Source of the DNA: Aerosakkonema sp. BLCC-F183
GTDB taxonomy: Bacteria > Cyanobacteriota > Cyanobacteriia > Cyanobacteriales > Aerosakkonemataceae
Assembly: GCF_041929145.1 (NCBI RefSeq)
Contig: NZ_JBHFNU010000005.1
Coordinates: 84,868 to 110,476 of the forward strand
Direction: 5' to 3'
Length of the DNA: 25,609 bases
Below, piece by piece: positions 9,139 to 25,609 of this stretch. A program made the position numbers and the translations under genes. The notes beneath the pieces are model-generated. The model was given only the letters and a program-made list of their open reading frames with translations. It searched no databases and was not told where the DNA came from. Position 1 is the first letter of the stretch. Each line of letters opens with the position of its first letter.

Positions 9139-9187
9139 AAAGTCAAAAGTCAAAAGTCAAAAGTCAAAAGTCAAAAGTCAAAAGTAA
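9139..9187. repeat. Heptanucleotide tandem repeat (AAGTCAA x~7)
   Basis: aaagtcaaaagtcaaaagtcaaaagtcaaaagtcaaaagtcaaaagtaa immediately after the large-subunit stop codon. Heptamer tandem repeats are a known cyanobacterial genome feature. Confidence 0.9.
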
Positions 9188-10117: not shown

Positions 10118-10225
10118 AACCCCACCCCCAACCCCGACCCGTCCACGGGGAGGGGAGAAACAGGTGTAGGGGGAGGGGTGAAACAGGTGTAGGGGGAGGG
10201 GTGAAAGAGAGAGGGGCTTCAGGGG
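10118..10225. repeat. C-run/G-run region with a 23-nt direct repeat (GAAACAGGTGTAGGGGGAGGGGT x2), a potential G-quadruplex or long hairpin
   Basis: cccacccccaaccccgaccc followed by ggggaggggag and two copies of aaacaggtgtagggggaggggtga. It lies between the convergent fibrillin gene and the last cas-operon gene. Confidence 0.8.
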
Positions 10226-10285: not shown

Positions 10286-10906
10286 CTAATCAACGCATTT
10301 GACGCTTTTGATACTGCCATTTTTTAAGGCTGTTATTTTTACTTTTACGATCTGCCCTTGCTGGAGAGAACTCGCTTTTTTCGGTTCTTTTTCAGTCAAT
10401 TTAATCGCGCCTAATATTTGATATGTCACTTTATTACCTGCAATGCCAATAACTTGGGCATCTAAGATTTGATCGATCGCAAAATCTTGAGATTGCGTCA
10501 CTTGTAAAATTTCGGCTTGCCGAGTAGATTCTATGACAGGAGCGGTAATTTCGCCGATCGGTCCCGCTTCTTTGTAGTAGCGCATTAAGCGAATTGACCA
10601 CCCTAAAATTTGCAGGATAGCTGTTACATCATTTTGATAAAGTTGCAAATATTTGGTGCAAGTTCTTTCTATGCTATCATAATATCCAGATGTTTTTTGG
10701 CTATATCCGATTCTATTACCTTGGCGGGAAAGTGTTTGCAGATAACTAAAAAATTTCGTGCCGGCATTTTCGCGATCGCTATAAGCGCGAAGATATGCCA
10801 TCACTTTACCCAATTCATTTACATCAGTCTCTTCTTTGACCAATGTTTGAGCAATTCCGTGAGCAATTTGCCATTGAATTTCGGTTAAATCGGTGGTAGT
10901 AAACAT
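10286..10906 (-). CDS. Hypothetical protein, last gene of the type III-D-like cas operon (candidate III-D-specific accessory, Csx19-like?)
   Basis: 206 aa with ATG at 10906, immediately abutting the stop of the upstream Cas7 gene. It has a helical N-half and a beta-rich C-half (GQIVKVKITALKNGSIKSVKC). No family was recognised, and the assignment is by operon position only. Confidence 0.45.
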   Translation of the reverse strand: MFTTTDLTEIQWQIAHGIAQTLVKEETDVNELGKVMAYLRAYSDRENAGTKFFSYLQTLSRQGNRIGYSQKTSGYYDSIERTCTKYLQLYQNDVTAILQILGWSIRLMRYYKEAGPIGEITAPVIESTRQAEILQVTQSQDFAIDQILDAQVIGIAGNKVTYQILGAIKLTEKEPKKASSLQQGQIVKVKITALKNGSIKSVKCVD

Positions 10907-11947
10907 TTAATAAACTCCGTCTATAGGTTCTCTAGTTGTCGGCCATTGCAGAACTTGTTGTAACTCTTTCAATTGTTGAGATTGTACTAATTGGGTGGAT
11001 GCCGATCGCACGGCTTTTTGGATGAATTCCTGGAGGGAATTACCAGTCAGAGAAGGGGGTGAGGTGTTGTAATTGCAATAGCGATCGCGCCATTCTTTCT
11101 CTTTTTCAATCCGCTGAATTTCTGTTACTTCAACTACCATCGTTCCCATACCAATTGGTTTACCGCCTCCCACTTTTAAAGCAATGGGATTTTTACTATC
11201 TTGTCCTAACACAATCAACAGCGTTCCCAATTCGGCTAAACTTAAATTCCTAAATCCAATTTGGGTAGTAAATATCAATTCTTTTCCCGCTTGTTGAACT
11301 GGAATACCTTGTTGTCCTTTGTCAATCGATTTAACAAAATGGTAATAAAACTTGCGTCCAGCTATTCTTCCATTTATATAGTAGCCGGCACGTTGTTTTC
11401 TGGGTGCATAAAGTGAGGGCATAAATCCCACACTCCACTGTGCATTGTTGAGAATCGCATCAGAAAAGCGAATCAAACCTTGCCAATCCATTGCCCCAAA
11501 AACTTGACAAGCCGGACAAAGTTTAGTATTATCTTTACATTCCCGATAACCATTCGGAATTTGACTCTGTTCTGCCTTAGTTTTGCACAAACAACTGCGC
11601 GTAATTGCTTCATAAGTAGAACGCACAACGCCTTTAAGGGAACTTCCCGGAACGATCGACTGTCGATCGCGTCCAACGGCAGTTTTGATTAGGGGGATAT
11701 TTTTGGCATTTCCCGATAAGTCGCTACCCATTGCGACAACGCCAGAAGCGACAAAAGTAGCGGTTTTCACCGTTAAGCGCAGAAAGATTGTACCGCTAAT
11801 GCGATCGCTTTTAAACCGATCTTGTCCAATTGGTTTATCTCGCGGTGGCGGCTGACTGGGTAGAGAAATGAGTTGATAAGGTTTTGGATTAGCAGTTTCT
11901 GGTGCAGGATTAGGTTGAGGGCGTCGAATTGGTCGATTGTTAGTCAT
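10907..11947 (-). CDS. Cas7-group RAMP (Csm5/Cmr6-like) with Zn-finger insertion
   Basis: 346 aa. It has a RAMP N-terminus (PYQLISLP), a G-rich segment and the Cas7 signature IVPGSSLKGVVRS. A Cys cluster (CLCK...C...CPAC) is present. It overlaps the upstream gene by 4 nt. Confidence 0.8.
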   Translation of the reverse strand: MTNNRPIRRPQPNPAPETANPKPYQLISLPSQPPPRDKPIGQDRFKSDRISGTIFLRLTVKTATFVASGVVAMGSDLSGNAKNIPLIKTAVGRDRQSIVPGSSLKGVVRSTYEAITRSCLCKTKAEQSQIPNGYRECKDNTKLCPACQVFGAMDWQGLIRFSDAILNNAQWSVGFMPSLYAPRKQRAGYYINGRIAGRKFYYHFVKSIDKGQQGIPVQQAGKELIFTTQIGFRNLSLAELGTLLIVLGQDSKNPIALKVGGGKPIGMGTMVVEVTEIQRIEKEKEWRDRYCNYNTSPPSLTGNSLQEFIQKAVRSASTQLVQSQQLKELQQVLQWPTTREPIDGVY

Positions 11948-12459
11948 GGGGATATCTCAACAGTGAGAGCGATAAAATGTACCGTGGAAGTTTCGCGATC
12001 GATGAAATAACGTTGAGCTATTTTAACTTTGTTTGGATTATTCTTTTCATCCTTAATTATGGGATTGAGAGCGTCAGGTACAATGAATTTTTGGGGAAAC
12101 CGAGTTTCATCGGGACGATAAATGTAAGCAGGTCGTTGTTCTACTTTCCACTCTATCTTTTTATCTTGTTCCTTTTTTTTATCTCGTTCCTCATCAATAG
12201 AAGTGAAAGCAGAATCTTTACCAGTTATTGACAGCAATAATACTGAATAACCTTGACCTTGTTGTTTCCAACGCAATTCGCGATCGCAATTAAACATTTG
12301 TCCTTCTGGACTGGGAAATTCTTTTAATTCCTCTACAATTCCACTGACGCGATCTTGCCACCGAAGAAAGTAATAAGTAGGCTTTTTCGCAAATTTATCT
12401 AGCAATTTTCTGAGATCTTCAGATGAGTCAACTTGTTTAATACCTACAAAAGGATTCAT
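11944..12459 (-). CDS. Hypothetical protein embedded between Cas7 genes (candidate all1473-like III-D signature gene)
   Basis: 171 aa with ATG at 12459, coupled by 4-nt overlaps on both sides. No motif was recognised. Its position between two Cas7 genes matches the uncharacterised gene of canonical III-D loci. Confidence 0.45.
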   Translation of the reverse strand: MNPFVGIKQVDSSEDLRKLLDKFAKKPTYYFLRWQDRVSGIVEELKEFPSPEGQMFNCDRELRWKQQGQGYSVLLLSITGKDSAFTSIDEERDKKKEQDKKIEWKVEQRPAYIYRPDETRFPQKFIVPDALNPIIKDEKNNPNKVKIAQRYFIDRETSTVHFIALTVEISP

Positions 12460-13451
12460 GCTGCTGTCCCTTGCAATATTTCACACCAAGCTTCTACAGT
12501 TTGCGAGAACAATTCACGCACTTTATCGCTCCCTTCCCAACTCTGTTGCACGCCAAAATTAAACTCAATTGGTGTTGTTTTTGGTGATGTTTCTTTCAGA
12601 TCGTTAGGGGGAAAACCATAGCGGTTTCTTTCTTCATCTTCCAGAAACATTCCCGCACCCAATAAGGAAGTAAGCGGCCATTTTGTTTCTGTGCCGATCG
12701 CGCTAATTTGTTCATCTTTTATAATACAGCCAGGATATTGGACAACGGCTGAATTTAACTTAACTTCCACCAATCCCAAACCGCGAGATTTAGCGAAACC
12801 TAATCCAAACCAACCTTGATTTAAATCGCGCAATACTAAACCGATTAATCCTAATTGTGCAAGGGTAAAATTTCTGAGATGAATTTTGGTATGAAATTCT
12901 CCGGCGGTACAAACTTGAAAATTAAATGGCCCTACAGCGACCGAACCAAACACTCTGTCAATAGCTACGCCATTGCGTTCTTCAATTTTCAACAATTTGG
13001 GATTAACCGGATAAGCATCTTCTATTCTGACGCGACTGGCGATCGCAGTATTGCCAAACATTTGGGAAATAAAACAAGATTGCTTGTATAATTCCGCGCC
13101 GGGATGGGGATGATTTTTATTTTTCTTTTTCCAGTTGTCTAGGTAAAGATTGATGTTTTTTTGTTCGTCTTTGTCGTCGCTGAGAGGGTCGCTTGCCCAG
13201 ACAGTGGTAGAATTATTAGGACGGCGATCGCTTCCCACCGTCCGCACAATTCGTTCTGCATGGGCGCGAATAGCACCTTTGAGAGAACTTCCGGGTAAAT
13301 AAATTGTCCGTCCTCCGCCGTGATAGGTTTCCACAAATTCCATATCCGGTTTCGTAGGGTCAGCACCTTCTTTGCCAGATTTAATTAAGATAGGGCCAGC
13401 AGGTGTGATAGTTAATTCTATTGTACATTGATTGACAAATCGTTTAAACAT
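12456..13451 (-). CDS. Cas7-group RAMP (Csm3/Csm5-like)
   Basis: 331 aa with the Cas7 signature IYLPGSSLKGAIRAHAERI and a G-rich loop (GFAKSRGLGLVE). Confidence 0.8.
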   Translation of the reverse strand: MFKRFVNQCTIELTITPAGPILIKSGKEGADPTKPDMEFVETYHGGGRTIYLPGSSLKGAIRAHAERIVRTVGSDRRPNNSTTVWASDPLSDDKDEQKNINLYLDNWKKKNKNHPHPGAELYKQSCFISQMFGNTAIASRVRIEDAYPVNPKLLKIEERNGVAIDRVFGSVAVGPFNFQVCTAGEFHTKIHLRNFTLAQLGLIGLVLRDLNQGWFGLGFAKSRGLGLVEVKLNSAVVQYPGCIIKDEQISAIGTETKWPLTSLLGAGMFLEDEERNRYGFPPNDLKETSPKTTPIEFNFGVQQSWEGSDKVRELFSQTVEAWCEILQGTAA

Positions 13452-14319
13452 TGCTGTTTTCCTCGGCAGTGGTATTAGCAGACATAAAAGTTCTTAAATG
13501 GGTAATCAAAGCATTTGTCCATTCCTGTTTGAGGAAAGCAATTCTTTCTGGATAGCATGAGTAAATATCCATTTCTCCGTTAACCAGATTTTGCAGGTAA
13601 TTTAGTAATAACTCTGGATCGTCTTCTGCATCAAACCATTGCATTTCTTTAATATCCAATTTCACCACACCCAATCCGCGAGAACGTCCACCGCCTAACG
13701 GAATTTGTTCAGTTTCAAATTGGTGCAATCCGATGGTTAATAAACCTAATTCCCAAGCTTCGGCGTTTTCAACTACTGCTTTAAACTCAAATTGCGTTCC
13801 TGCCGGTACAACTTGAAAATCGTATAATTTCGCATCAGCAGCAGTTTCGGTATCGCGATCGATCGCAACTCCATCTCGTTCTTGATATTGTCCAAACCAA
13901 CTATCTAGTAATACCGTTAAATCTCGTACTTGAAATTTACTGGCGATCCAAGGAGAACCGAATAAGCGAGAAACTAAATCGGTTTCTTTTAAAATTGCAG
14001 TGGTGAGGTCAAAATCATCTTTGTTTTCGTCCTTAAGTTGCTTGATTTCATCAGCTTTTAGCGACCATTCATCCTCTACGGCGGGATTGGCGACTAATTT
14101 GCGATCGCTTCCCACAATCCCGCGCAGGAAGCTTTCTAAACGCGATCGCAAAGCACCTTTAAAACTCGACCCCGGAATTAAAGGTCGTCCTACCGCATCT
14201 TTAATTACTGGTAAATCCGAACCAATTGGTTCTGTGGAACGTCCCGCGCCAATTCGCAAAGCGGTGATAGTTGTGAGAGTTCCGGTGATTTCCAAACGAC
14301 TTTTGAAAGTATCAAACAT
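13444..14319 (-). CDS. Cas7-group RAMP (Csm3/Cmr4-like backbone subunit)
   Basis: 291 aa with the N-terminus LEITGTLTTITALRIGAGR ... PLIPGSSFKGALRSRLESFL and a C-terminal G-rich loop GGGRSRGLGVVKL. A SD-like AGGTGGA precedes the ATG at 14319. Confidence 0.85.
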   Translation of the reverse strand: MFDTFKSRLEITGTLTTITALRIGAGRSTEPIGSDLPVIKDAVGRPLIPGSSFKGALRSRLESFLRGIVGSDRKLVANPAVEDEWSLKADEIKQLKDENKDDFDLTTAILKETDLVSRLFGSPWIASKFQVRDLTVLLDSWFGQYQERDGVAIDRDTETAADAKLYDFQVVPAGTQFEFKAVVENAEAWELGLLTIGLHQFETEQIPLGGGRSRGLGVVKLDIKEMQWFDAEDDPELLLNYLQNLVNGEMDIYSCYPERIAFLKQEWTNALITHLRTFMSANTTAEENSNV

Positions 14320-14339
14320 ATCAATCCACCTATTTTTAC

Positions 14340-15500
14340 TTACTTTTTAATGCCTTCTCTTTTGTAAATATACTCATGTGTTCCGTAGTATCGCAGAGAT
14401 AATCTTCCTCCATCTGCAACTTTGCAGCTAACTCGTCGAGTCTGAGCCGTAATGTTGATATGGTCGATATTTGTATTCTGATATCTACGAAGCCTCAGAA
14501 TATCATCGTCTTTCAAAGCGCTGATCCCATCTCCATGTTTGAATAATAGGTAAGCTGCTCTAGCTAGCCTTTCTTGCAACTGAATCCTTTCCTGAATGTC
14601 TAAAGTATTTTGGTAATCTTTGCAAAAGCTTTGTTCATAATCCAATTTAGGAAATTTGACTAAATCTTCCGAAAGTAACTCGTCTTTGCATTGATTCCAA
14701 ATCAATTTTCCCCATGTCGATAAAGTCATTTCTTTGCCATCAACCAAAACCCATTCTTCCGGGACTTTCTTTGCTTCTTCCCAAGATGTAGGAATTTCTC
14801 CAACATCCATCATTGCTAGTTGTACTTTGTATGGCTCAACCTTGGAGCGATCTACCTTTACAGGAAGTTGTGGAATTTTGATTACTTCATTCGATCCCTC
14901 AAAAACATAGACAATTTCATTAGCATAAAACATTCCAATGGTATTGAAGTAGCCTTGCAAAGCTTTGAATCCACCAACTAAATTGAAATAAATCTGGTAT
15001 TTGCTACTTTTAGAAGCAATAATTATTTCTTGCAGTGTGGGAATTAATTTTGCCATTCCCTCTATAAAGGTAGCGCTACTGGCGATGGACAGTCCAGGCT
15101 GTATACAAGTACTGGTGTTATTCAATCCGTTACTTTTCAAAAATGACTCTACAATGTTTGCAGTAACTCTAGCTTGTGCTGTGTCAGTAGCAACTAATAA
15201 ATGAGTATCTTCTGTACCCTGTTCTAGTTTATTATTGTACAAACCATAGATGCCATTCAGTTCCGCGCTCAACTCTCGGATTTCTTCAAGCTCGGTATCG
15301 TCATTGTAAAGCTTTTCTTCCGCCCTATTCTTCAACTTTTCAATAATATGGGAAATATCCTCATGATATTTTTTTATTTCATCAACAGTATAATTTGCAG
15401 TTTGCTGTAGGCACTTAGACCAGCTATCTGGATCGATATCGCGGTCAATTTGATTGGTCAATAAACTTGTACCGACAGTGGAAATTACGAGTCGAGGCAT
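14340..15500 (-). CDS. CARF-domain protein with C-terminal putative HEPN-like domain (Csm6/Csx1-type cOA-activated effector candidate), embedded in the effector operon
   Basis: 386 aa with ATG at 15500 and AAGGAG upstream. The N-terminal Rossmann strand MPRLVISTVGTSLL and the later NLVGGFKALQGY motif match the CARF core signature (hhhhS.G.S ... TGG[TF]K). The C-terminal region carries RYYGTH (R-x4-H), which is compatible with a HEPN RNase motif. Confidence 0.55.
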   Translation of the reverse strand: MPRLVISTVGTSLLTNQIDRDIDPDSWSKCLQQTANYTVDEIKKYHEDISHIIEKLKNRAEEKLYNDDTELEEIRELSAELNGIYGLYNNKLEQGTEDTHLLVATDTAQARVTANIVESFLKSNGLNNTSTCIQPGLSIASSATFIEGMAKLIPTLQEIIIASKSSKYQIYFNLVGGFKALQGYFNTIGMFYANEIVYVFEGSNEVIKIPQLPVKVDRSKVEPYKVQLAMMDVGEIPTSWEEAKKVPEEWVLVDGKEMTLSTWGKLIWNQCKDELLSEDLVKFPKLDYEQSFCKDYQNTLDIQERIQLQERLARAAYLLFKHGDGISALKDDDILRLRRYQNTNIDHINITAQTRRVSCKVADGGRLSLRYYGTHEYIYKREGIKK

Positions 15501-15534
15501 AGAGATACACTCCTTTGTAAACGATAGTTAAAAC

Positions 15535-15951
15535 CTAAATTTCACCTTTATTTTTGTATACCAGATAGCGTGCGCCATAACCAAGATAGCGACGGGTTAG
15601 CTCTAGCCAAATTTGGTTATATTCATCAACTTCAGCCGCTTTTGCTATTTCTTTAGCAGCCTCCTTAATGTCTTTATCGATGTTACGAATAATTTTTGCT
15701 GCTAAAGATTGTTCGCCTTTACCCCACTTTTTGTCACGCCCTACCTGATAACGCAAAAAGTTTTTGATTACTTCTGTGCTTTCAGTTGTATCAGCAACTC
15801 TTAGAAGATTACGAAATTGGGATTCTTGTAAATCACCATAAGAGCTTTTATCATCTAAAGCATCTTGGATCTTAGTCACTAGCTTATCCTCAGCTTGGCG
15901 AATACCTTTTTGAATCTTGAGTTGTTTTTGCGGATCGAATGGTTCGTTCAT
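15535..15951 (-). CDS. Cas11-like small subunit (Csm2/Cmr5-type, alpha-helical)
   Basis: About 138 aa from the ATG at 15951, which forms an ATGA overlap with the Cas5 stop (the track start at 15990 is TTG). It is small, Lys/Glu-rich and helical, and sits directly after Cas5 as in III-D loci. Confidence 0.5.
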   Translation of the reverse strand: MNEPFDPQKQLKIQKGIRQAEDKLVTKIQDALDDKSSYGDLQESQFRNLLRVADTTESTEVIKNFLRYQVGRDKKWGKGEQSLAAKIIRNIDKDIKEAAKEIAKAAEVDEYNQIWLELTRRYLGYGARYLVYKNKGEI

Positions 15952-17222
15952 ACAGGTTCCTCCTGAAATACAAGATGAAATTCGTTGCAAACTTCAATTT
16001 GACCGAAGCCTTCACAGGTGCGATCGCCGACACCTACAATCTCTAAATTTTCTAATGCTTTCATCCAAGCATCTCGTTGTGCAGTGCTAAATAAATACAC
16101 CGCTCCTTTATTAGTTATCAGTTCCACATCTTTCATCAATCCCCAAGCAGAATTCCAGCCAGAACGATAGTCATAGCTACTATACGCTGCTTCAAGTTTT
16201 AAGGTGGAATCTTTAACGCCAGTAAACTTTTTTAGCATTTCTTCCGAAATTACAGTGGTACCCTGCCAGTTATCGGTCAAAATCGCCTCAGAGTGTAAAT
16301 CCAAAGAAAAGTAGGTGCGATCGATCGCCAATTCTTTTAAAGGACTACCAAATACTCTCCATTCCTTCCAACGTTGTCCAAGTTTTTCATTAAAATTCTC
16401 GACTTTTGCAACTACATTGGGTTTAATATCTACAATTTTAGCTTGAATTTTGACTTTTCCCAACCCGCGTGAAGTAGAACCACCTAAGCGGAAATTTTCA
16501 CTGCGATCGAGAATAAATTGCGTCAGAGAATCTGCCAAACTATCTTCTACCAAAATTGAGCCGCAGTAAATAACAGGTTTGGGCTTTTTACCTTTCGATT
16601 CAGATTCATTCAGAACTTCTATGCTGTAAAGTATTTCCTCTTCAGCCGTAGCCAGTCTTCGATTAATACCTACTCGTGTTAATAGGCGTTTATTAACACT
16701 ATGAGCGTGATATTTATCATTGAGTTTGCTGTAAAAACAACTATGTGCATCGACTCGCCCTCCGTCTGTTGGACAATTGGGATCGTAGGGATAACCGTAA
16801 CCTTCAGCACAGAAGCGATCGATCAGAGTATCGAAAACGCCGTTACTTCCTTTTTTAGACGTAAACCCAGAGCTATTTTTAGAACTCAGCGCAGTAGTAG
16901 GTAGCACCCTAACTTCTGGTTGTAATATAGTTTTATCCTTTATTTCTATAGTTGCAGGATAAGCATTTTGAAAAATTGCGGGAGTATCATCAAGAAATAA
17001 AGCCTGAAAATCACCGCCATTTTCTGAGAAATCTTGGCTCCATTCCTGCTGTTGTTCGCTTTGTTGTAGCTGACGATATTTTTGCAAAATTTGAGCGGCA
17101 ATTGCACCCCGAATTACGCTTCCGGGAATATAACTTTCTACTTCGCTAATTGAACCGCCTGGTTTCTGGCGTGCTATTGCCAGAGGAGATAAAGCTTTAA
17201 TTTCTAATAGAATGCGCTTCAT
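15948..17222 (-). CDS. Cas5-group RAMP (Csx10/Csm4-like)
   Basis: About 424 aa from the ATG at 17222, which forms an ATGA overlap with the upstream stop (the track start at 17252 appears to be TTG). It has LEIKALSPLAIARQ...YIPGSVIRGAIAAQ, reminiscent of the Csm4 L.L.F.SPLHIG...IPGS.IKG pattern, and a C-terminal G-rich loop GGSTSRGLGKV. Confidence 0.65.
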   Translation of the reverse strand: MKRILLEIKALSPLAIARQKPGGSISEVESYIPGSVIRGAIAAQILQKYRQLQQSEQQQEWSQDFSENGGDFQALFLDDTPAIFQNAYPATIEIKDKTILQPEVRVLPTTALSSKNSSGFTSKKGSNGVFDTLIDRFCAEGYGYPYDPNCPTDGGRVDAHSCFYSKLNDKYHAHSVNKRLLTRVGINRRLATAEEEILYSIEVLNESESKGKKPKPVIYCGSILVEDSLADSLTQFILDRSENFRLGGSTSRGLGKVKIQAKIVDIKPNVVAKVENFNEKLGQRWKEWRVFGSPLKELAIDRTYFSLDLHSEAILTDNWQGTTVISEEMLKKFTGVKDSTLKLEAAYSSYDYRSGWNSAWGLMKDVELITNKGAVYLFSTAQRDAWMKALENLEIVGVGDRTCEGFGQIEVCNEFHLVFQEEPV

Positions 17223-17959
17223 TGCACCCTTCCTTTTGCCAAGAATTGCCAAACAGTTTCATCCACTTGAATTTCAGGTAAATCCCAATGTAACCAACCT
17301 AAACCCGCAGATTTACTGCCGCCCAGTGCGTGAATATGCCGCAAACCAGCCCAAATCAGCGCTTTAGCATAATCAGGTCGATCGGGTGTTACGGGTGTTA
17401 GGCTTGGTTGGATGTGAATATTACCCTCAAATCTGAGTTTAAGATTTACGGGAGAGGTTTCCAAAAAGTAAAGTTTTTTCTCCTCCGCAGTGCGGCGACG
17501 GCGATTAATCGTCACACCCGGACGGATAACTTCAGGTAAATTTTCAGGGTCTTCTGTGCAAACTAAATCATCAAAGATTACTCGTGATGGTAAAACCGGA
17601 TCGCCAAATATTTGGCTAATTAAACAGTGATATGTTTCATTATACCCTGCAACTTGATACTCGCTACGACAAAATTCGCTCGGTGAACTTTCTCGCCGTA
17701 AAACCATTTTTTTAGGGCTAGGAGATTTACAAATTGCCCAACCCAAAGCCCTTGCAAATTTTTCGCATTCATGGCGCAGGCGACCCTTGACTTGAGAGCC
17801 AGGAATTAGCAGATTTGTTTGGGAGTCTCGAACAATCGGTTTATCTGCTAGGGAACTAGAAGAACCACCAGCACCTACACACAAAGCCGTATCAATTATA
17901 GCAGTAATTTTGTGTGTTTCTACTTCAATTAAATTTGATAAATTTCTGAGAAATATCAT
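17219..17959 (-). CDS. Cas7-group RAMP, small (Csm3-like)
   Basis: 246 aa with CVGAGGSSS...LLIPGSQVKGRLRHE. Its start overlaps the cas10 stop (TGATG). Confidence 0.75.
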   Translation of the reverse strand: MIFLRNLSNLIEVETHKITAIIDTALCVGAGGSSSSLADKPIVRDSQTNLLIPGSQVKGRLRHECEKFARALGWAICKSPSPKKMVLRRESSPSEFCRSEYQVAGYNETYHCLISQIFGDPVLPSRVIFDDLVCTEDPENLPEVIRPGVTINRRRRTAEEKKLYFLETSPVNLKLRFEGNIHIQPSLTPVTPDRPDYAKALIWAGLRHIHALGGSKSAGLGWLHWDLPEIQVDETVWQFLAKGRVQ

Positions 17960-20346
17960 CAGTCAGCCTCCTGAGTTACAAGTCTTTCCTGGGATGTTCC
18001 AGAATCTTCAGATGTCTCAATGAAGTCATAGAGGTCTACCAGTTCTCGCCAAATTGTTTCGTAGGTTGTCTCTCCTGGTTCTAGAATGGACATCCAAGGA
18101 GCTAGATTACCCTTATTATTTTGCTCTTTTGGTTGACACCAAGCTTCTTCAAACTTTTCTTTTAATTCTTGTTGTCCTTGCTGGAGTCGAACTCGAAAAT
18201 AACGGTAGTTAAGAATAGCGGTATGCTTGCCCCGTTCCAGTAGATCGCGAATTTGGTACAGTTGCGATCGCGGAAATTTTGCCTTGTTCAATGCGTCGAT
18301 TGTCTCAATCAATCCTCCTAATTCATGCAAAGTATAAGGGGCCGCATATAGCTTTAAAGTAGGAGTGTGTATGTCCTTAATTTTCACCTCTGGATTTTTA
18401 ATTAATGCCTGCTTTCTGAACTCGTCGATATCGGATGAAATCATCGTTACAGCTTTCAGCACTAAAAAATCAACCGTACCGCCACAATAGCCATATTTTC
18501 TCAACTTCTTTGCCTTGCTTTTAGCAGATTTAAGTAACTGCTCATAAAGGTTTTTTGCGTAGTAAATAGGAGTGTTGTAAGCTGTAATCAACACGCCGCT
18601 CGATATACTTAGTTGACACTGAGAAAGTTCTGCTTTTTCGCTTGAGTAGCGGTGGCATTTTTTGAGGTCAATTGGCTTTTCAGATTGCTTAGTATGATAG
18701 TTGCCTTGAATTTCTACACCTGCCAGAGATACTTGTTTGAGGAGGATTTTTTCAAACTGCTCGCCAATCATTTTAGCGATCGCCAATGCCTGAGAAGCTG
18801 GCACAATCAAAATAATATCATCTCCGCCAATCGTAATAATTTCAAAGGGATGAATGAAATCACCATCCTGCCATCTTGAATCTGGATCTTTAATTCCTCT
18901 AATCTGGCGGGGATGAAGATTATATGCTAAGGCTTGATAAACAGCATACTCAGTTGCGTTGGCCACATCTTCGCTAAACTCTTTGTATTTTTCTGGCGTA
19001 GTGCATATTTTCTGAATAAATCCTCCCATGTTGTTGCCATCAGCATAAATATAGGCAACAAAACCATTGCTGACATTGCCTAAATGCGTTAATGATTTAG
19101 CAATTTTAACATCATCCTGTTGGCAGGTTTGATAATATTGCTGACATTGCTCGGAATTTTTCTGTAAAAATTCCTCGAATTTGTCAACCCAACCTTCTAT
19201 TATTCCAGGTTGCCATTCTAGCCCGGTATTTTTGTACCATTCTGGTGTTTTAGCTAATCCCGTTTTAGCGCGATCGCCTACTCGTCTTTTACGTGCAGAA
19301 ACTTCAGAAAATTGAGATTCGCTGGGCAATAAAGGTGGCTGAACGATCGCCACAGCAGATCTGCGATCGCCTTCATCCCTTCTCAAATAAGGATGAGTTT
19401 CAAACATCGGTGGGTAGCGGCGACTGGGGCGATCGGGAAAATCATTTCCACTGCGGCGTTGATTAAACAGAATCGCCAATTTAGTTGTTAATTCATTAAA
19501 ACTTTTCCGGTTAGCAAAAGCTTCTTCAACAGATACCGGATCGCTAATACATGGCTCATTTGGCTTTTTCTCCAAGTTGCCAAAGTAAGCCCGAACCAAT
19601 GGTTTATTATATTCTTGACGATACCGCTCTAACCAGAAATTATTTTCAATGGGGTCTTGTAGCAGACCAAATCGAGTTTCCATTAACCTAAAGGTATCGG
19701 CGACTGCACAGGAATTAGCTGCTAAAGTTTCCTCGGTGTAACGCTTTTCAATAGCATTAGCTAAGTCATCTGCAAAAGCCGCTGGGCAAAACGCCAGAAT
19801 ATTACCGCCAGTTGAGTAGATGATTAGTTCAGGAATTAACGCATCTGAAAATTTTGGTTCATTAGGAAAGTTGTCGTTAAGCCATGTTCTTACTTCTTGA
19901 CACTGGATAGTGTAGTTGTAGAGAATTGATTCAGGGTTTTTGTTAAAAAAAGCAGGCAAATCGCTCAGATTGATTCGATCTAGTAGTGCAGAAGCACCCC
20001 GAATATCTGGGAGTTTTGCCGCTTCAAATACGTATTGTTTAATCTTGGTTGCACCGCCGTAAACCAAGCCTATTCGAGAGTTCCAAAGGATAGAATGCTG
20101 TTCGGCCAATAACTTTAACTCATCTAACGTTTTGGGAAACTTTAGAGTTTCTAATTGCTTGACTTGTTCGAGGAGCGATCGCATTTTTTCTGGAATATCT
20201 GTCCCAGCGTGCAATGCTTCCCGCATCTGGTGCAATTCCTTGATATCAAATTGCGGTTGGCGCTGTTCTCCCCAAGCCAGACACCAGGCGATTCCAACGA
20301 AAAGCTTTCCTGATGCTGTCTTTATGTCTTGTTGAAAGTTACTCAT
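17959..20346 (-). CDS. cas10: Cas10 large subunit of a type III CRISPR-Cas effector complex (III-D-like, no recognisable N-terminal HD domain, intact GGDD cyclase motif)
   Basis: 795 aa with ATG at 20346. The palm/cyclase motif FEIITIGGDDIILIVPASQALAIA is present. No H..HD..D motif is found in the first ~150 aa. It is the first gene of a coupled RAMP operon with the order cas10-cas7-cas5-cas11. Confidence 0.85.
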   Translation of the reverse strand: MSNFQQDIKTASGKLFVGIAWCLAWGEQRQPQFDIKELHQMREALHAGTDIPEKMRSLLEQVKQLETLKFPKTLDELKLLAEQHSILWNSRIGLVYGGATKIKQYVFEAAKLPDIRGASALLDRINLSDLPAFFNKNPESILYNYTIQCQEVRTWLNDNFPNEPKFSDALIPELIIYSTGGNILAFCPAAFADDLANAIEKRYTEETLAANSCAVADTFRLMETRFGLLQDPIENNFWLERYRQEYNKPLVRAYFGNLEKKPNEPCISDPVSVEEAFANRKSFNELTTKLAILFNQRRSGNDFPDRPSRRYPPMFETHPYLRRDEGDRRSAVAIVQPPLLPSESQFSEVSARKRRVGDRAKTGLAKTPEWYKNTGLEWQPGIIEGWVDKFEEFLQKNSEQCQQYYQTCQQDDVKIAKSLTHLGNVSNGFVAYIYADGNNMGGFIQKICTTPEKYKEFSEDVANATEYAVYQALAYNLHPRQIRGIKDPDSRWQDGDFIHPFEIITIGGDDIILIVPASQALAIAKMIGEQFEKILLKQVSLAGVEIQGNYHTKQSEKPIDLKKCHRYSSEKAELSQCQLSISSGVLITAYNTPIYYAKNLYEQLLKSAKSKAKKLRKYGYCGGTVDFLVLKAVTMISSDIDEFRKQALIKNPEVKIKDIHTPTLKLYAAPYTLHELGGLIETIDALNKAKFPRSQLYQIRDLLERGKHTAILNYRYFRVRLQQGQQELKEKFEEAWCQPKEQNNKGNLAPWMSILEPGETTYETIWRELVDLYDFIETSEDSGTSQERLVTQEAD

Positions 20347-20662
20347 CTTTGATATAGGGTGTTTGTTCTAACTTTTGCACGAATTCAGGTAACGCCAGTT
20401 TTGGCGAAACAAAATGTTAAACCAACGAATTAGATGTTTGGCGATCGCTCAAGTATCTTCTCAATTCGATTGCCAAATTCTTGCCTCTATTCTGACATCC
20501 GTATGGAAAACCCCTTTTCCAAGTTTTAACTCGTTTTTGAGGTATCGAACAGTAGTACTTGCCTTCCAGAGTTTCCACGCTTCAGCCTGGAAACTCCAAA
20601 AAAGCGATGACTACACCTGGATTAGAAAATTTCCAGGTGCATCAAAACTTTTGATTTACTCT

Positions 20663-21220
20663 CTATTGAGGTTTGAGAAAGAGGTTTAACTCCAAATGGA
20701 AGATGTTGCGAATCTTAAGCAACAAACATACACCAGCGTGCGGAATCTTTGCCATATCCCGCAGAGTCGGACATAATCCATTTACAGCCACATTTTCAAC
20801 TGCTGAACTTATAATTTCAACAGGCTGCTTCTCCGATTTGTTGGTAGGGTGGTTTGTAGGATGGAATTCCAGGCTTTGCGGGTGATGGAGTGGCGCTTTT
20901 GCTTGTGAAGTGAGCAAGATGCCCAAATCTGTAGTCGCCCATGTTGGCTGCCCTATAATGGGTGTAGCCGCGAGAACAGCTTGCTTCCCCTCTCCAAAAA
21001 CTAAAATCGTTGATGGAGAAAAAACCTTTGAGATTGAGCCAGGATTGTACGAAAGGCTCAAATTACCTAACAACCCACAGGTTAAATTGCTGGATTGTTG
21101 ATTTTGTAAGGTTTGGAGGAAACAAGCTGTTCTCGCTGGGCTTTGAGTAGTTAATTGAGTTTGGAAAGTTATCTCGCTTAAGGAAGCGTTTTTTGTCAAC
21201 TTTGGTATTGCTTGAGGCAT
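20663..21220 (-). CDS. Hypothetical Ser/Thr/Gln-rich protein upstream of cas10
   Basis: 185 aa ORF with ATG at 21220, no clear SD and low complexity (HPTNHPTN). It could be non-coding leader or promoter space instead. Confidence 0.25.
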   Translation of the reverse strand: MPQAIPKLTKNASLSEITFQTQLTTQSPARTACFLQTLQNQQSSNLTCGLLGNLSLSYNPGSISKVFSPSTILVFGEGKQAVLAATPIIGQPTWATTDLGILLTSQAKAPLHHPQSLEFHPTNHPTNKSEKQPVEIISSAVENVAVNGLCPTLRDMAKIPHAGVCLLLKIRNIFHLELNLFLKPQ

Positions 21221-21444
21221 ACTTATACCTACAATGAAAGGATAGATTATAGTATAACCTAGCTCTACAGGGAAAACTTGTCTTTTCCTATATGTTCAAA
21301 AACCGTAATTTATTTTCCAAAATATTAATACCAAGCAAGTCATGGCTGGATACCCGATGGTTAGGTTGACTTCTGGATCAAATTTGTGTATACTTTATAA
21401 GTCAAATATCAGAATAATAGAAAATGCCGTTTTTCAATGGTTAG
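21221..21444 (+). promoter_or_regulatory. AT-rich CRISPR leader-like region preceding degenerate repeats (also contains the divergent promoter space)
   Basis: About 220 nt of AT-rich sequence (ttattttccaaaatattaatacc..., tgtgtatactttataagtcaaatatcagaataatag) lie immediately upstream of the first repeat-like unit. Confidence 0.4.
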
Positions 21445-21550
21445 ACAAAAACCTAAAAACTCCCCGTAAGGGGATTGAAACAGGCATTTCTCACTGAAAT
21501 TTGATTAGTTGACTAAGTTCTCAACTACTTCCCCGCAAGGGGACTAAAAC
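21445..21550 (+). CRISPR. Minimal or degenerate CRISPR array with two repeat-like units and one ~32-35 nt spacer, and a possible third decayed unit at 21655-21684
   Basis: Unit 1 is ...AACTCCCCGTAAGGGGATTGAAAC and ends at 21481. Unit 2 is GTTCTCAACTACTTCCCCGCAAGGGGACTAAAAC (21517-21550). Both have a CCCC-N4-GGGG hairpin and a 3' ...[T/C]T[G/A]AAAC handle. From memory they closely resemble the 37-nt cyanobacterial type III-D repeat GTTCAACACCCTCTTTTCCCCGTCAGGGGACTGAAAC. A third fragment reads TTCCCCAAATGGGGAC. Confidence 0.5.
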
Positions 21551-21684: not shown

Positions 21685-22281
21685 TTACGAACTCGCCATC
21701 GCACCTTGCTGCAACTCTCTCACCACCCATTCCAATTCCTCCACCATCCAACTGCTACTCAACTGGCGGTAAATCTGCAATTGTTCTTGATAAAGCCATA
21801 ACACCCCTTCCTTACCGCCTCGGAAATAATGCCAAATTTCTTCGCCAAATTGCCTAAAATTAACCAACATAGTCCGCGCATTGTGCAACTTATCCGCCAG
21901 CATCACCCTTTGCACTGGCGGACAAGCATCTCGTAGCTGTTGGAGATATTGCTGTTTGTGTTCTTTCCAAGTCGGATATAAACTCGGTTCTGGCTCGGTG
22001 CAACCTTCTATAATATGGAAAACGCGATCGCCAAATCGCTGCAAAATTTCCGCCTTCGTTACTTCTCCCCCTCGGTCTTCCAGCGCATCGTGCAATAAAG
22101 CGGAAATTGCCTCATCTTCATCTCCTCCATCTTCCAACACCAAAGCCGCTACGCTCAACAAATGGGCAATATAAGGAGTACCTGTAATTTTCCGTTGTTG
22201 GTCGCCATGAAGTTGCGCCGCATATACCAACGCTTCCTGAAAACGCGAAGTTAAAATTGTCAAACACCGTTCATTCTTCAT
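21685..22281 (-). CDS. Small alarmone hydrolase-type HD-domain protein (RelA/SpoT hydrolase fold, Mesh1/SAH-like)
   Basis: 198 aa with ATG at 22281. The HD motifs LHGDQQRKITGTPYIAHLLSVAALV and AISALLHDALEDRGG match the (p)ppGpp-hydrolase HD_4 signature. It overlaps the upstream WYL gene by 11 nt. Confidence 0.8.
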   Translation of the reverse strand: MKNERCLTILTSRFQEALVYAAQLHGDQQRKITGTPYIAHLLSVAALVLEDGGDEDEAISALLHDALEDRGGEVTKAEILQRFGDRVFHIIEGCTEPEPSLYPTWKEHKQQYLQQLRDACPPVQRVMLADKLHNARTMLVNFRQFGEEIWHYFRGGKEGVLWLYQEQLQIYRQLSSSWMVEELEWVVRELQQGAMASS

Positions 22282-23686
22282 AAATTTTCCATTCTTTTTC
22301 GACTTCTCTCTTCGCCTGTTCTCGTAATTCCACAGGGAGGAGAATTTCTACATTCGGTCGCCACGCACGCAAGCGCTGCATTACGTTAGGATCGCCTTGG
22401 CGATATTGCGCTTGGTAATAAGCATCTTGGGGAGAACATTTGCGCCAAATATTTAACATCTTTTGTTGTTGTTCTCCCTTTAAGTTCTGCCGAATTAATC
22501 GTTCTACTTCTTGATATGCCACTCGCGCAAAGGTAGCATGGCGCATAGTATTGCGGATGTAGCGATTATCCCACTCGCGATCGAACCTCAATAGTAGCAG
22601 TTGTGGGGGTTGATAGTAATCAAAACCCCAAACTTCTGCGATCGCTAATTGGATATCATCGGGAATAGGCAGAGTCTTCTTTTGATATCGCCGTTTCAGC
22701 GCCACCGGAACTTGCGGATCGTCCCAACTCAAAGGGATCGAATCCTGAATGCGATCGAGCCGATAATTGCGAAAATCTAATTTTCCCGATTCGTCTTGCG
22801 GAACTTCGCCAAACGCACACAAATACGGCCCTCTCTGATAATAATAAATGCAAACGGGATAAACTACCACCGACAAAGTTGTTTGCCATACCGCACTTTC
22901 ATAACTTAACAAAATCGGCGGTACAACTTCCTGTTGCCAAAGTTCCCGCAGTTGTGCTTGCCATTCTTCGACACGATCGATCGAGTCTTGCGGAATCACA
23001 TATTCCAGATGGATAAAAAAGCGCTGCTGACCATTCAATCGCGTGGAAAGATTATCTGCGATCGCAGCCAAATCCGGTTGCGTGAGAAAATCCAAATTGT
23101 AAGCTATCAGACGAGAATCTGATTTTTGGATCGAACTCGGCGTCCGTGGATATTTCTTAACCCGATAATACCGATTTCCTTGGCGTTTCAGCCACCCGAT
23201 TTCTATCAAAACTTGCAAATCGCCATAAAGCGATCGTCTTGTCAAGCCAAACAAACGAGTATCGTGCAACAATTCTTTAAGGTTATCCGGTAACAAATGA
23301 TGTTCCCGCAAAGATTGTTCAAACGATCGCTCTTTTTCCTGTACTTCCGGCTTCCCTAATTCCCCTTTCCACTTTGACTGAGTTAAATTGAAATCAGAAC
23401 CAAATAACCAAGCAGCAACAGTTTTCGCACAACGGCATTTCGGGTCGTGCAACGCCGGAATTTCTTCTTCTCTAGTATGAGTCGCAGTAAAAAAAGCATC
23501 TCGCCATTCAGGATAAGTAAAATTTTCCGGCAAATTCAACTTAATGCCGGCTTCCCCATACAGAAAGTGCAACCACACCCACAACCGCACCGCCTGTAGC
23601 AATCTTTGTTTTAAATCTCCCCGCGCCAGCCATTGCAGCAGTTCCACACGAGGAGGTTCATTCCAAAAGGGGTTGACCGTTTCCAA
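22271..23686 (-). CDS. WYL-domain protein with winged-HTH (putative ligand-sensing transcriptional regulator associated with the type III locus)
   Basis: 471 aa with an apparent TTG start. A wHTH-like segment RLFGLTRRSLYGDLQVLIEIGWLKRQGNRYYRV is present. The WYL-domain core YPVCIYYYQRGPYLCAFGE...GKLDFRNYRLDRIQDSIPL matches the P..L.y..g.WYL.a....R.FRLdRI consensus. Confidence 0.6.
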   Translation of the reverse strand: METVNPFWNEPPRVELLQWLARGDLKQRLLQAVRLWVWLHFLYGEAGIKLNLPENFTYPEWRDAFFTATHTREEEIPALHDPKCRCAKTVAAWLFGSDFNLTQSKWKGELGKPEVQEKERSFEQSLREHHLLPDNLKELLHDTRLFGLTRRSLYGDLQVLIEIGWLKRQGNRYYRVKKYPRTPSSIQKSDSRLIAYNLDFLTQPDLAAIADNLSTRLNGQQRFFIHLEYVIPQDSIDRVEEWQAQLRELWQQEVVPPILLSYESAVWQTTLSVVVYPVCIYYYQRGPYLCAFGEVPQDESGKLDFRNYRLDRIQDSIPLSWDDPQVPVALKRRYQKKTLPIPDDIQLAIAEVWGFDYYQPPQLLLLRFDREWDNRYIRNTMRHATFARVAYQEVERLIRQNLKGEQQQKMLNIWRKCSPQDAYYQAQYRQGDPNVMQRLRAWRPNVEILLPVELREQAKREVEKEWKIYEE

Positions 23687-23799
23687 GCTACTCTCCCGAT
23701 TTCAGCGATTTGCCTTCCTTTCTAAGTATGCCTCATCTTGGAAGCAGGTGCTTCCACCAGTTTGATACAGTAGCAATAACTCAATGAACCTATTATTTA

Positions 23800-24156
23800 A
23801 TGTCAGCCATTCAATTACAACTGTTTCGGGAGCAAATCCAGTCAGGTCTGGCCTACCAACACCTGCACATCCAAATCAACACACCGGATGGACTGATTGC
23901 ACCAGCCGACCTGAAAAATTTATCTCTACCGGAGGAAATGGTCTGGAGTCAAGGCGTTGTCATTGAAGGTAAAGCGCCAATTTGGTTGTACGCCTATTTA
24001 GTTCACGCTTGTCACCCCGCCGCTTGGGTAGCTTGCTTCGACCCCCGCTTAGAAGGTGCAGTTATAATTGCTACACACAGTCGCCAAGTCGCACTCGGAG
24101 ATATTCTCAAACTCAACTTACCCGCAGCCATATTTCGCAAAACAACAGGTACGTAG
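23800..24156 (+). CDS. Csx3-like (Crn3-type ring nuclease candidate) stand-alone domain protein
   Basis: 118 aa with ATG at 23800. It is paralogous to the N-terminal ~115 aa of the 24533 gene (GKAPIWLYAYLVHACHPAAWVACFDPRLEGAVIIATHS versus GIAPTWLYANLVERCWQAPWIGCYTAPKNQIVVIQS). The stand-alone plus NTPase-fused pair next to a type III locus is the arrangement reported for Csx3 in cyanobacteria. Confidence 0.4.
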   Translation: MSAIQLQLFREQIQSGLAYQHLHIQINTPDGLIAPADLKNLSLPEEMVWSQGVVIEGKAPIWLYAYLVHACHPAAWVACFDPRLEGAVIIATHSRQVALGDILKLNLPAAIFRKTTGT

Positions 24157-24532: not shown

Positions 24533-25465
24533 ATGAATACGATCGCCTTACAAAAACAAGTTGAACTGCAAGTCACCGAACTGAAAACCGCACAAGGAAG
24601 TTATCAAACTTTGGCGATTAGCTTAGTGATGTTCCAGGAACTAATAAAAACTGATGTACTCGCACAATTGAAACTTCCTGACGAACTAGACTTGAGCAGA
24701 GAAGTAATTTTATACGGTATAGCTCCTACTTGGTTGTATGCCAATTTAGTAGAACGCTGTTGGCAAGCGCCTTGGATAGGATGCTATACAGCGCCAAAAA
24801 ATCAAATTGTTGTAATTCAAAGTCGGATATCAACAATAAGTATAGGCGATGCGATACCTGTATTGCTTAACAACATTCCTTGTCCGGCAATTTTAATAGG
24901 TGGTTCGCCTGACAGCGGCAAAAGCGTTTTATCGAATGCTTTGCGTTTTAATTTGATGAAAACCGGAGCATTCAAACGAGTATTTGTACATCGCGCTTCT
25001 TGGGATGGTGAGGGAAATTGGGTTTACGAAGTAGCGAATCGGGATTTAGCTAAAAAGCTGATTGTAGAAAACGAGTTTCGATTGCACGAAAATCCCGAAA
25101 CGGCGAAGTTAATACCGAAATTCTTTAAATATCATAGCTCGGCGGTACAGAATTTGCGGGAAGTTGTCGATTTGGTTTTGGTTGATGTGGGTGGTAAACC
25201 GCAGCAAGAGAAAGCGCCTCTGGTCGCACAATGTACGCACTATATAATTATTAGTAAAGAATCAGATGAGATTCCCAAATGGCACGAGCTTTGTCATCCA
25301 ACTTTGCAGCCGTTAACGGTGATTCACAGCGTCCGACAAAAACGAGAAGAAGTTTGGCAAAAACAACCTTTTTTGGAAATCATCGACGGACGCTGGTGCG
25401 AAGGTGAAATCCAGTCTGTTCCCGATATCTTGCTGGAAAATGTGCTTAGGGTTTTGCACGCCTAG
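24533..25465 (+). CDS. Csx3-like N-terminal domain fused to a P-loop NTPase (Csx3-AAA-type accessory protein)
   Basis: 310 aa with ATG at 24533 and AAAGGAA upstream. Residues ~1-115 are paralogous to the 118-aa ORF. Walker A ILIGGSPDSGKSVLSNAL and a Walker-B-like hydrophobic strand DLVLVDVGG are present. Confidence 0.5.
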   Translation: MNTIALQKQVELQVTELKTAQGSYQTLAISLVMFQELIKTDVLAQLKLPDELDLSREVILYGIAPTWLYANLVERCWQAPWIGCYTAPKNQIVVIQSRISTISIGDAIPVLLNNIPCPAILIGGSPDSGKSVLSNALRFNLMKTGAFKRVFVHRASWDGEGNWVYEVANRDLAKKLIVENEFRLHENPETAKLIPKFFKYHSSAVQNLREVVDLVLVDVGGKPQQEKAPLVAQCTHYIIISKESDEIPKWHELCHPTLQPLTVIHSVRQKREEVWQKQPFLEIIDGRWCEGEIQSVPDILLENVLRVLHA

Positions 25466-25556
25466 AGCGCCAGCAGACCCGGATTTGGTACAACGCGGTG
25501 GGGTAGCGCCCATCTGAGCCGACACAACACCCTTTAAATTATTTATTTAAATAAAA

Positions 25557-25609
<53 letters not shown>

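Follow-up and report, generated by a model that had tools for sequence, protein, structure and literature searches.

A TIGR03985-family WYL regulator gene and a small alarmone hydrolase gene form a conserved pair within a Csx3-containing cassette of cyanobacterial type III CRISPR loci

In a 25,609-nt stretch of the Aerosakkonema sp. BLCC-F183 genome (contig NZ_JBHFNU010000005.1, positions 84,868 to 110,476; hereafter, the window), a gene encoding a WYL-domain regulator of the TIGR03985 family overlaps a gene encoding a small alarmone hydrolase (SAH) with an HD domain, beside a type III CRISPR locus and two Csx3 genes. We found that the WYL gene, the HD gene and the Csx3 genes are associated in many cyanobacterial loci and that many of these loci share an operator-like palindrome. 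We read the locus as one arm of an accessory cassette of type III CRISPR that is conserved in cyanobacteria. The best explanation that we can offer is a WYL-controlled regulon that would co-express the Csx3 ring nucleases and the alarmone hydrolase as a signal-clearing or recovery unit, and we assign it a probability of roughly 45%. To our knowledge, ring nucleases are the only off-switches of type III CRISPR signalling recognised so far, and recovery from type III-induced dormancy is poorly understood. The genes of the cassette are located in the window as follows.

22271..23686, minus strand: WYL gene, encoding a TIGR03985-family helix-turn-helix (HTH)-WYL protein of 471 amino acid residues (aa), TTG start
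21685..22281, minus strand: HD gene, encoding an SAH of the RelH/pbcSpo type, 198 aa, ATG start, single HD_4 domain
22271..22281, minus strand: overlap of the WYL stop and the HD start, 11 nt, ATGAAGAATGA
23800..24156, plus strand: homologue of the Csx3/Crn3 ring nucleases (118 aa), in divergent orientation to the WYL gene
24533..25465, plus strand: fusion of Csx3 and a P-loop NTPase ("Csx3-AAA", cluster 35 of Shah 2018), 310 aa

The coordinates and the overlap of the WYL and SAH open reading frames (ORFs), which had been predicted in a first-pass annotation, were borne out in the sequence. The HD start codon ATG lies 8 nt ahead of the WYL stop codon TGA, inside the last codons of the WYL gene, where the minus strand reads ...GAATGGAAAATTTATGAAGAATGAACGG...; the minus-strand sequence spanning the junction is ...TGGAAAATTTATGAAGAATGAACGG....

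To define the conservation of the pair, one genome per species was scanned with an alignment of the WYL protein, which yielded 226 loci, and 80 of them, all cyanobacterial or cyanobacteria-like, were kept. The position of the HD gene in these WYL-seeded loci was determined by tblastn searches with the window proteins, and gene starts in the related loci were extrapolated from alignments. The HD gene was distributed as follows.

48 of 80 loci: HD gene directly downstream of the WYL gene on the same strand (41 full-length and 7 partial)
8 of 80 loci: HD gene at another place in the cassette, in most cases next to the Csx3 genes
21 of 80 loci: no HD gene although flanking sequence was available
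3 of 80 loci: too little flanking sequence to decide

Over the 48 loci with direct adjacency, the WYL stop and the HD start were separated by a median of about 0 nt with many small overlaps, and a spacing of about -10 nt recurred in the closest relatives of the window pair. The Csx3 genes were located divergently upstream of the WYL gene in most loci, so that the cassette comprises Csx3-P-loop and Csx3 transcribed in one direction, an operator-like site, and WYL (TIGR03985) followed by HD transcribed in the other. Clustering of the ORFs from 87 cassettes gave only four sets of recurrent families, namely WYL (87 cassettes), Csx3 variants (79 of 87), type III genes within the flanks (56 of 87) and HD (55). 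No conserved extra partner, above all no alarmone synthetase, was present among the recurrent neighbours of these 87 cassettes. The linkage of the WYL gene to CRISPR and SAH genes across genomes, on which the first-pass annotation had made its proposal depend, was therefore found.

Pairwise distances between the WYL proteins and between the HD proteins were correlated with r = 0.78, a value that was reached in 0 of 999 permutations. Among 15 HD copies on cyanobacterial plasmids, 14 shared a cassette with a TIGR03985 gene, and 13 were directly adjacent to it. In plasmid pSYSA of Synechocystis 6803, sll7078 (TIGR03985) is followed 24 nt later by a gene for an "HD domain-containing protein", which is taken to be sll7077 judging from its position, and the pair lies opposite slr7080 (Csx3-AAA). 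Trichocoleus carries the same cassette. The WYL-HD linkage was kept across Nostocales, Leptolyngbya-like, Oscillatoriales-like and Synechocystis lineages, on both chromosomes and plasmids. The linked HD sequences were gathered via the WYL gene, and the fraction of the SAH genes of this cyanobacterial clade that reside in a cassette was judged from the plasmids, from two spot checks and from a sample of metagenomic homologues. The HD gene was located on the Csx3 side in 6 to 8 loci, including L082, L004, L005, L013, L056, and L063. Its occurrence in either arm of the divergent unit suggests that the conserved feature is co-regulation, not physical coupling of the HD protein to the WYL protein.

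The intergenic regions between Csx3 and WYL, extracted from 57 loci, shared an 18-bp palindrome, TGGAAR-N6-YTTCCA, which was usually centred about 45–60 nt upstream of the WYL start codon. Exact copies numbered 75 in 1.37 Mb of WYL loci as compared with 0.4 in composition-preserving shuffles, and five control palindromes of the same composition had 0 to 2 matches each. The loci with a solo HD gene contained one exact match in 0.53 Mb. In 50 of 85 loci, a copy was located no more than 400 nt upstream of the WYL gene, in most cases at about 45 nt from the start codon. These results are strong comparative evidence that TGGAAR-N6-YTTCCA is a cis element of the cassette. Its predicted binder is the WYL protein, judging from the position of the palindrome and from the way in which BrxR, CapW, and DriD work. 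Two exact copies were identified in the window.

23739..23756, no strand assigned: operator-like palindrome TGGAAGCAGGTGCTTCCA, in the middle of the 113-bp divergent WYL/Csx3 intergenic region
20504..20521, no strand assigned: second exact copy TGGAAAACCCCTTTTCCA, about 160–175 nt upstream of the cas10 start codon

A copy of TGGAAR-N6-YTTCCA upstream of cas10 was also found in L002, L003, and L063. In the first-pass annotation, an inverted repeat upstream of cas10 had been put forward as the target for an electrophoretic mobility shift assay with the WYL protein. The proposed target was close to a conserved copy, but the repeat itself, which had been placed at about 20563–20592 and actually lies at 20569–20596, is not the best candidate; the two copies listed above are preferable. 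The repeat consists of GAGTTTCCA-N10-TGGAAACTC, and another palindrome upstream of cas10, CACCTGGA-N10-TCCAGGTG, is located at about 20617–20642. Both contain TGGA(A)/(T)TCCA half-sites in other arrangements and could be auxiliary sites or unrelated hairpins.

Additional exact copies of TGGAAR-N6-YTTCCA were observed just downstream of the HD gene or near other island genes (L086, positions 8605 and 14628; L023, 11795; L026, 12167; L009, 4131; L024, 4516; L077, 2820), and one of the copies in L086 precedes an unannotated ORF of 295 aa. The palindrome regulon may thus have further members. A second palindrome, TGTGATA(N2)AAATCACA, was present in many Nostocales cassettes (L025, L027, L033–L035, L038–L040, L050–L052, L059, L065, L078, and L087), about 360 nt upstream of the WYL start and near the start of Csx3-P-loop. 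It fits the CRP-type consensus TGTGA-N6-TCACA and is absent from the window. In Nostocales, the Csx3 arm may be under the control of cyclic AMP and a CRP-family protein.

The assignment of a WYL and an SAH domain to the two proteins in the first-pass annotation was correct. The 471-aa ORF product has a database entry of 100% identity, "TIGR03985 family CRISPR-associated protein" (Aerosakkonema sp. BLCC-F183). Since this entry also has 471 aa, the TTG start agrees with the homologues. The match to the Pfam WYL model was marginal (21.9 bits against a cut-off of 21.8), and those to NCBIfam TIGR03985 (7e-88, 294.3 bits with a cut-off of 60, model positions 1–249 of 249) and to the PADLOC model HTH-WYL (PDLC01046; 538.6 bits, 3e-162, residues 8–470) covered the models or the protein almost entirely and are decisive for the assignment. 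The protein was modelled by AlphaFold with 30 homologues in the alignment and a mean predicted local distance difference test score (pLDDT) of 82. The N-terminal helical domain contains a His/Cys cluster in which H70, C84, and C86 are invariant and H80 is nearly invariant. According to the model, an HTH with a beta-wing is predicted at about residues 136–175 and a disordered linker at residues 185–234; a WYL beta-barrel at about 258–318 is followed by an alpha/beta C-terminal WCX-like domain, and this succession of barrel and WCX-type domain is that of the WYL-domain transcription factors DriD, PafBC, CapW, and BrxR. The WYL protein belongs to a type of regulator linked to CRISPR.

The window protein itself shows no difference from the family variously catalogued as TIGR03985, cluster 36 "HTH-WYL" of Shah 2018, and sll7078. 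It is 33% identical to sll7078 of Synechocystis 6803 over 98% of its length and shares with the TIGR03985 family its cyanobacterial origin and its position adjoining type III loci and Csx3-AAA. In contrast, it is only 9–18% identical to DriD, PafBC, CapW, BrxR, and the Cas13d accessory protein WYL1, and, unlike them, begins with an additional domain of about 130 aa that is specific to its family and carries the His/Cys cluster. No description of an alarmone hydrolase in the operons of these five regulators was found.

The HD protein matched Pfam HD_4 (8e-23, residues 17–138), and TIGR00691 (spoT_relA) covered it with its N-terminal hydrolase part alone (model positions 1–122 of 687). It consists of a single HD_4 domain and has no synthetase, TGS or ACT domain. 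Its homologues have 190–210 aa and the same N-terminus, which supports the ATG start. Six catalytic motifs, HD1 to HD6 (Arg, His, His-Asp, Glu-Asp, Asp-Lys/Arg, and Asn), have been defined in the paper that solved the structures 7QOE and 7QOD (PMC9293644). All of them are complete in the HD protein as R30/K31, H40, H64-D65, E68-D69, D130-K131, and N134, respectively, and are invariant in 31 homologues, which bears out the label of small alarmone hydrolase. Of the proteins with a solved structure, Leptospira levettii RelH (PDB 7QOE; E = 1.7e-40, residues 10–176) is the nearest, with about 50% identity over the aligned region, and Corynebacterium glutamicum RelH (7QOC/7QOD; E = 1.7e-25) comes next. 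Lmo0812 and Mesh1 are more distant, as are the hydrolase domains of long Rel enzymes. Going by these motifs, the HD protein is an ordinary, catalytically intact RelH-type SAH, which would remove the 3'-pyrophosphate of (p)ppGpp, and probably also of (p)ppApp, in an Mn2+-dependent reaction. It shares with the RelH-type SAHs (7QOE, 7QOC/7QOD, and the pbcSpo group of the RelA/SpoT homologue (RSH) classification) the length of about 200 aa, the single HD_4 domain and the conserved HD1–HD6 motifs. Whereas the characterised RelH enzymes are encoded by stand-alone stringent-response genes, the genes of the clade to which the window protein belongs are part of an accessory cassette for CRISPR and appear to be controlled by a WYL regulator.

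To compare the cassette-linked copies with the rest of the family, the best 80 metagenomic homologues (47–58% identical) were collected. Most of them were on high-GC, evidently non-cyanobacterial contigs, and 75 of the 80 had no WYL or Csx3 neighbour; no conserved neighbour was found for the solo HD genes of other phyla. The HD family as a whole is widespread and, outside cyanobacteria, stand-alone and unlinked to cas genes. In neighbour-joining trees calculated from tblastn segments, the linked cyanobacterial copies grouped apart from a large solo clade.

This distribution bears on the view that a housekeeping alarmone hydrolase came to lie beside the WYL gene through shared island ancestry and has no CRISPR function. 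Such hitch-hiking is consistent with the broad, stand-alone occurrence of the family elsewhere, with the cassettes that have no HD gene, about a quarter of the total, and with the few solitary cyanobacterial copies. However, the linkage persists across cyanobacterial lineages, on chromosomes and plasmids and even after a move to the other arm, the WYL-HD spacing is as tight as in an operon, and the divergence of the two proteins is correlated. Pure hitch-hiking would hardly preserve a linkage so widespread and so tight, and we regard it as very unlikely.

A column-by-column comparison of 56 linked and 62 solo HD sequences revealed 42 positions that were conserved identically in both groups, every catalytic residue among them. 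Substitutions that might change the specificity of the linked enzymes were sought and not found; only five positions discriminated between the groups, and all of the exchanges were conservative (E/D, L/I, F/Y, and Q/R). No non-conservative discriminating position was found between the two groups, and there was hence no sequence sign of a change in substrate. The first-pass annotation had raised the possibility that the HD enzyme removes a type III signal; linked and solo copies are alike in all conserved positions, including the six HD motifs, and this speaks against it. A candidate new kind of off-switch beside Csx3 would act, for example, on cA3, cA4 or cA6, on linear products with a 3' or cyclic phosphate, on SAM-AMP, or on an as yet unknown Cas10 product. 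The tight and ancient linkage of the HD gene to Csx3 ring nucleases and type III loci would fit such an enzyme. The closest solved relative, Leptospira RelH, is weak on (p)ppGpp (PMC9293644), and the fold accepts other adenosine-ribose phosphates, Mesh1 being an NADPH phosphatase (cited in PMC9293644). On the other hand, the solo homologues of other phyla have no cas context, RSH hydrolases remove a 3'-pyrophosphate, which cyclic oligoadenylate (cOA) does not have, and the HD protein matched no PADLOC model. Only RSH-type HD models were matched, and no CARF, Csx3 or other known ring-nuclease fold was detected in it. Since the linked copies have no active-site change and the family stands alone outside cyanobacteria, a canonical alarmone hydrolase seems likelier than a cOA-degrading enzyme, and the removal of a type III-specific signal is improbable in our judgement.

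The proposed logic is that of the Csx3/Crn3 ring nuclease modules of type III CRISPR. The cassette holds Csx3 and Csx3-P-loop, and in both cases a second messenger would be removed to end the response, but the HD protein has neither a Csx3 nor a CARF fold, and the substrates of its family are mononucleotides with a 3'-pyrophosphate rather than cyclic oligoadenylates. The P-loop half of the Csx3-"AAA" fusion was considered as a specific nucleotide or polynucleotide kinase feeding the HD enzyme, and this candidate was rejected, as the sequence matches were confined to the P-loop. The C-terminal domain of the fusion has a SIMIBI-type fold in the structural model, of a generic kind like that of MinD, ParA, CTP synthase, and dethiobiotin synthetase, and gives no mechanistic clue.

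On the other side of the WYL-HD pair lies a type III-D cas operon, which also holds csx10 and several csx7-type RAMP genes. The features identified on this side of the HD gene are as follows.

10286..20346, minus strand: type III-D cas operon, downstream of the WYL-HD pair and co-directional with it
17959..20346, minus strand: cas10 with a GGDD cyclase motif, in the III-D operon
14340..15500, minus strand: CARF7-RelE (Csm6-like) effector, in the III-D operon
10286..10906, minus strand: csx21, in the III-D operon
21444..21481 and 21517..21550, no strand assigned: two degenerate CRISPR-repeat-like elements between the HD gene and cas10

With Cas10 carrying GGDD, the CARF7-RelE effector, and Csx3, the cOA pathway is present in the window. 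The first-pass annotation had placed the WYL-HD operon between the CRISPR leader and the Csx3 genes. The position beside the Csx3 genes was confirmed, whereas the leader was not; a search with Tandem Repeats Finder (TRF) and for direct repeats revealed no CRISPR array or demonstrable leader beside the operon, and the two degenerate repeat-like elements scored below the Rfam gathering thresholds. L002 and L003, the loci most closely related to that of the window, carry a full CRISPR array (repeat ...ACATCACCCCGCAAGGGGACGGAAAC) in the interval from the HD gene to cas10, and the operator palindrome comes after this array. Since a genuine array fills that position there, the elements at 21444–21550 look like the remnant of an array. 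The two elements appear to be oriented oppositely to the array repeats of L002 and L003. An ORF of 185 aa at 20663–21220, for which neither a family match nor a homologue in any of the 80 related loci was found, was rejected as a gene.

A scan of the larger ORFs of the window, which covered most of those of at least 100 aa, revealed no alarmone synthetase, in agreement with the first-pass annotation, which had seen no partner synthetase. This result is relevant to the view that the hydrolase is an antidote that neutralises a toxic synthetase, be it a toxic small alarmone synthetase (toxSAS), a CapRel-like protein or a phage-encoded enzyme, by breaking down (p)ppApp or by taking pyrophosphate off the 3' ends of tRNA; the HD gene would then be an immunity or anti-anti-defence gene in a defence island. 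SAH proteins are known antitoxins of toxSAS modules, and the cassette shares with toxSAS-SAH pairs an SAH gene in a defence-island context. In addition, PaSAH degrades (p)ppApp (PMC9293644), and capRel-type synthetases occur in cyanobacteria (PMC3153485). However, a synthetase gene was found neither among the scanned ORFs nor among the conserved neighbours of the 87 cassettes, and the conserved partners of the HD gene are the WYL protein and Csx3, not a toxin. Unlike toxSAS-SAH pairs, the window HD gene has no adjacent synthetase toxin, and its conserved neighbour encodes a transcription factor. We therefore consider the chance of an antidote function to be slim.

The presence of the HD gene and the Csx3 ring nuclease genes in the same apparent regulon led us to read the cassette as a co-regulated signal-clearing or recovery unit. 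The WYL protein would be an autoregulating transcription factor, a dimer of which may bind TGGAAR-N6-YTTCCA between the two divergent promoters, and, with the second palindrome upstream of cas10, the cas operon is probably also an output of the regulon in this lineage. In DriD, PafBC, and CapW, a single-stranded nucleic acid or an oligonucleotide serves as the ligand, and, by analogy, the WYL/WCX domains would bind a ligand and thereby switch the expression of the regulon, the output genes of which would be those for the Csx3 ring nucleases and the alarmone hydrolase. Csx3 would remove cA4, and the hydrolase, to go by its sequence, would clear (p)ppGpp or (p)ppApp. The cA4-activated CARF7-RelE RNase would arrest translation, upon which alarmone may build up. 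As the least certain step, Csx3 and the hydrolase together would end the growth arrest, and the cell would leave dormancy.

Several points weigh against this signal-clearing explanation. About one cassette in four has no HD gene, which indicates that the gene is dispensable, and no common replacement gene was found in the cassettes without it. Two solitary HD copies of the cyanobacterial clade, L084 on the chromosome of Calothrix sp. NIES-2098 and L083 on a plasmid of Gloeothece verrucosa PCC 7822, lack both a WYL and a Csx3 neighbour and are placed inside or beside linked groups; the nesting of the Calothrix copy inside a WYL-linked Nostocales group in the tree suggests a secondary escape from the cassette. 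Of the 22 other loci that have a III-D cas10, no more than 3 carry the palindrome upstream of this gene, and control of the cas operon by the palindrome may be specific to the lineage of the window. Synechocystis has only a degenerate palindrome with two mismatches at the equivalent position. The accumulation of alarmone as a result of CARF7-RelE activity is, furthermore, a step that we infer. RelH of L. levettii and that of C. glutamicum both hydrolyse (p)ppGpp, but the Leptospira enzyme is much slower in vitro (PMC9293644), which leaves room for a preferred substrate of the HD enzyme other than (p)ppGpp.

In the main rival to this explanation, the WYL domain itself would be a sensor of (p)ppGpp or (p)ppApp, and the co-transcribed hydrolase would exert negative feedback on this ligand, in which case the expression of type III genes and Csx3 would be tied to the stringent response, not to the products of interference. 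Bacteria commonly encode a regulator along with the enzyme that breaks down its inducer. The location of regulator and hydrolase genes in one putatively autoregulated operon, often with overlapping codons, and the palindrome upstream of cas10 in the window and its nearest relatives are in line with such feedback, which we consider possible but unlikely. A bolder combination, and a distinctly unlikely one, is a second, non-cOA layer of nucleotide signalling in cyanobacterial type III immunity, in which the WYL protein would sense and the SAH would erase a 3'-pyrophosphorylated nucleotide. The signal would be (p)ppApp/(p)ppGpp or a pyrophosphorylated oligoadenylate made during interference, and the WYL protein would switch the Csx3 and cas10 promoters; the low likelihood applies to all of these elements taken jointly. 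If true, it would be a sensor-eraser-operator circuit that couples the alphabet of the stringent response to CRISPR.

Other features of the window were observed away from the cassette. At the opposite end, an ORF of the PD-(D/E)XK nuclease family (192–674, plus strand) and a gene for a Dam-family adenine methyltransferase (646–1506, minus strand) are convergent and overlap, and the two (192–1506) may be a restriction-modification pair. A perfect heptamer tandem repeat (AAAGTCA, 6.7 copies; 9139–9185) and a 23-nt repeat (2.6 copies; 10147–10206) lie in the stretch that separates the aldehyde oxidoreductase genes from the end of the type III operon. An A-rich run at 25549–25609 (about 61 residues, 90% A), with which the window ends, looks like a contig-end or assembly artefact.

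The WYL family has been catalogued as a cas accessory, as TIGR03985, as cluster 36 "HTH-WYL" of Shah 2018, and in PADLOC, and sll7078 was called only a "possible regulator" in the literature found. The HD partner is absent from the 76 accessory clusters of Shah 2018. No description of the WYL-HD pairing was found in the literature searched, which was mainly open-access, and none in PADLOC, and the pairing may have been described elsewhere. The view of the first-pass annotation that the pairing is not a described module is supported to this extent, as the literature and catalogues describe the WYL family but not its HD partner. What appears to be new is the conserved association of a known regulator family with a known enzyme family, together with a conserved operator-like palindrome that is predicted for the cassette.

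An alarmone hydrolase under the same apparent regulator and predicted operator as Csx3 points to a physiological link of CRISPR interference with the stringent response. The uncharacterised TIGR03985 regulators gain a concrete predicted DNA target. The pair is also present on pSYSA of Synechocystis 6803, which is genetically tractable and in which CRISPR3 interference assays are working; the hypothesis is therefore directly testable in a cyanobacterium with the same gene pair.

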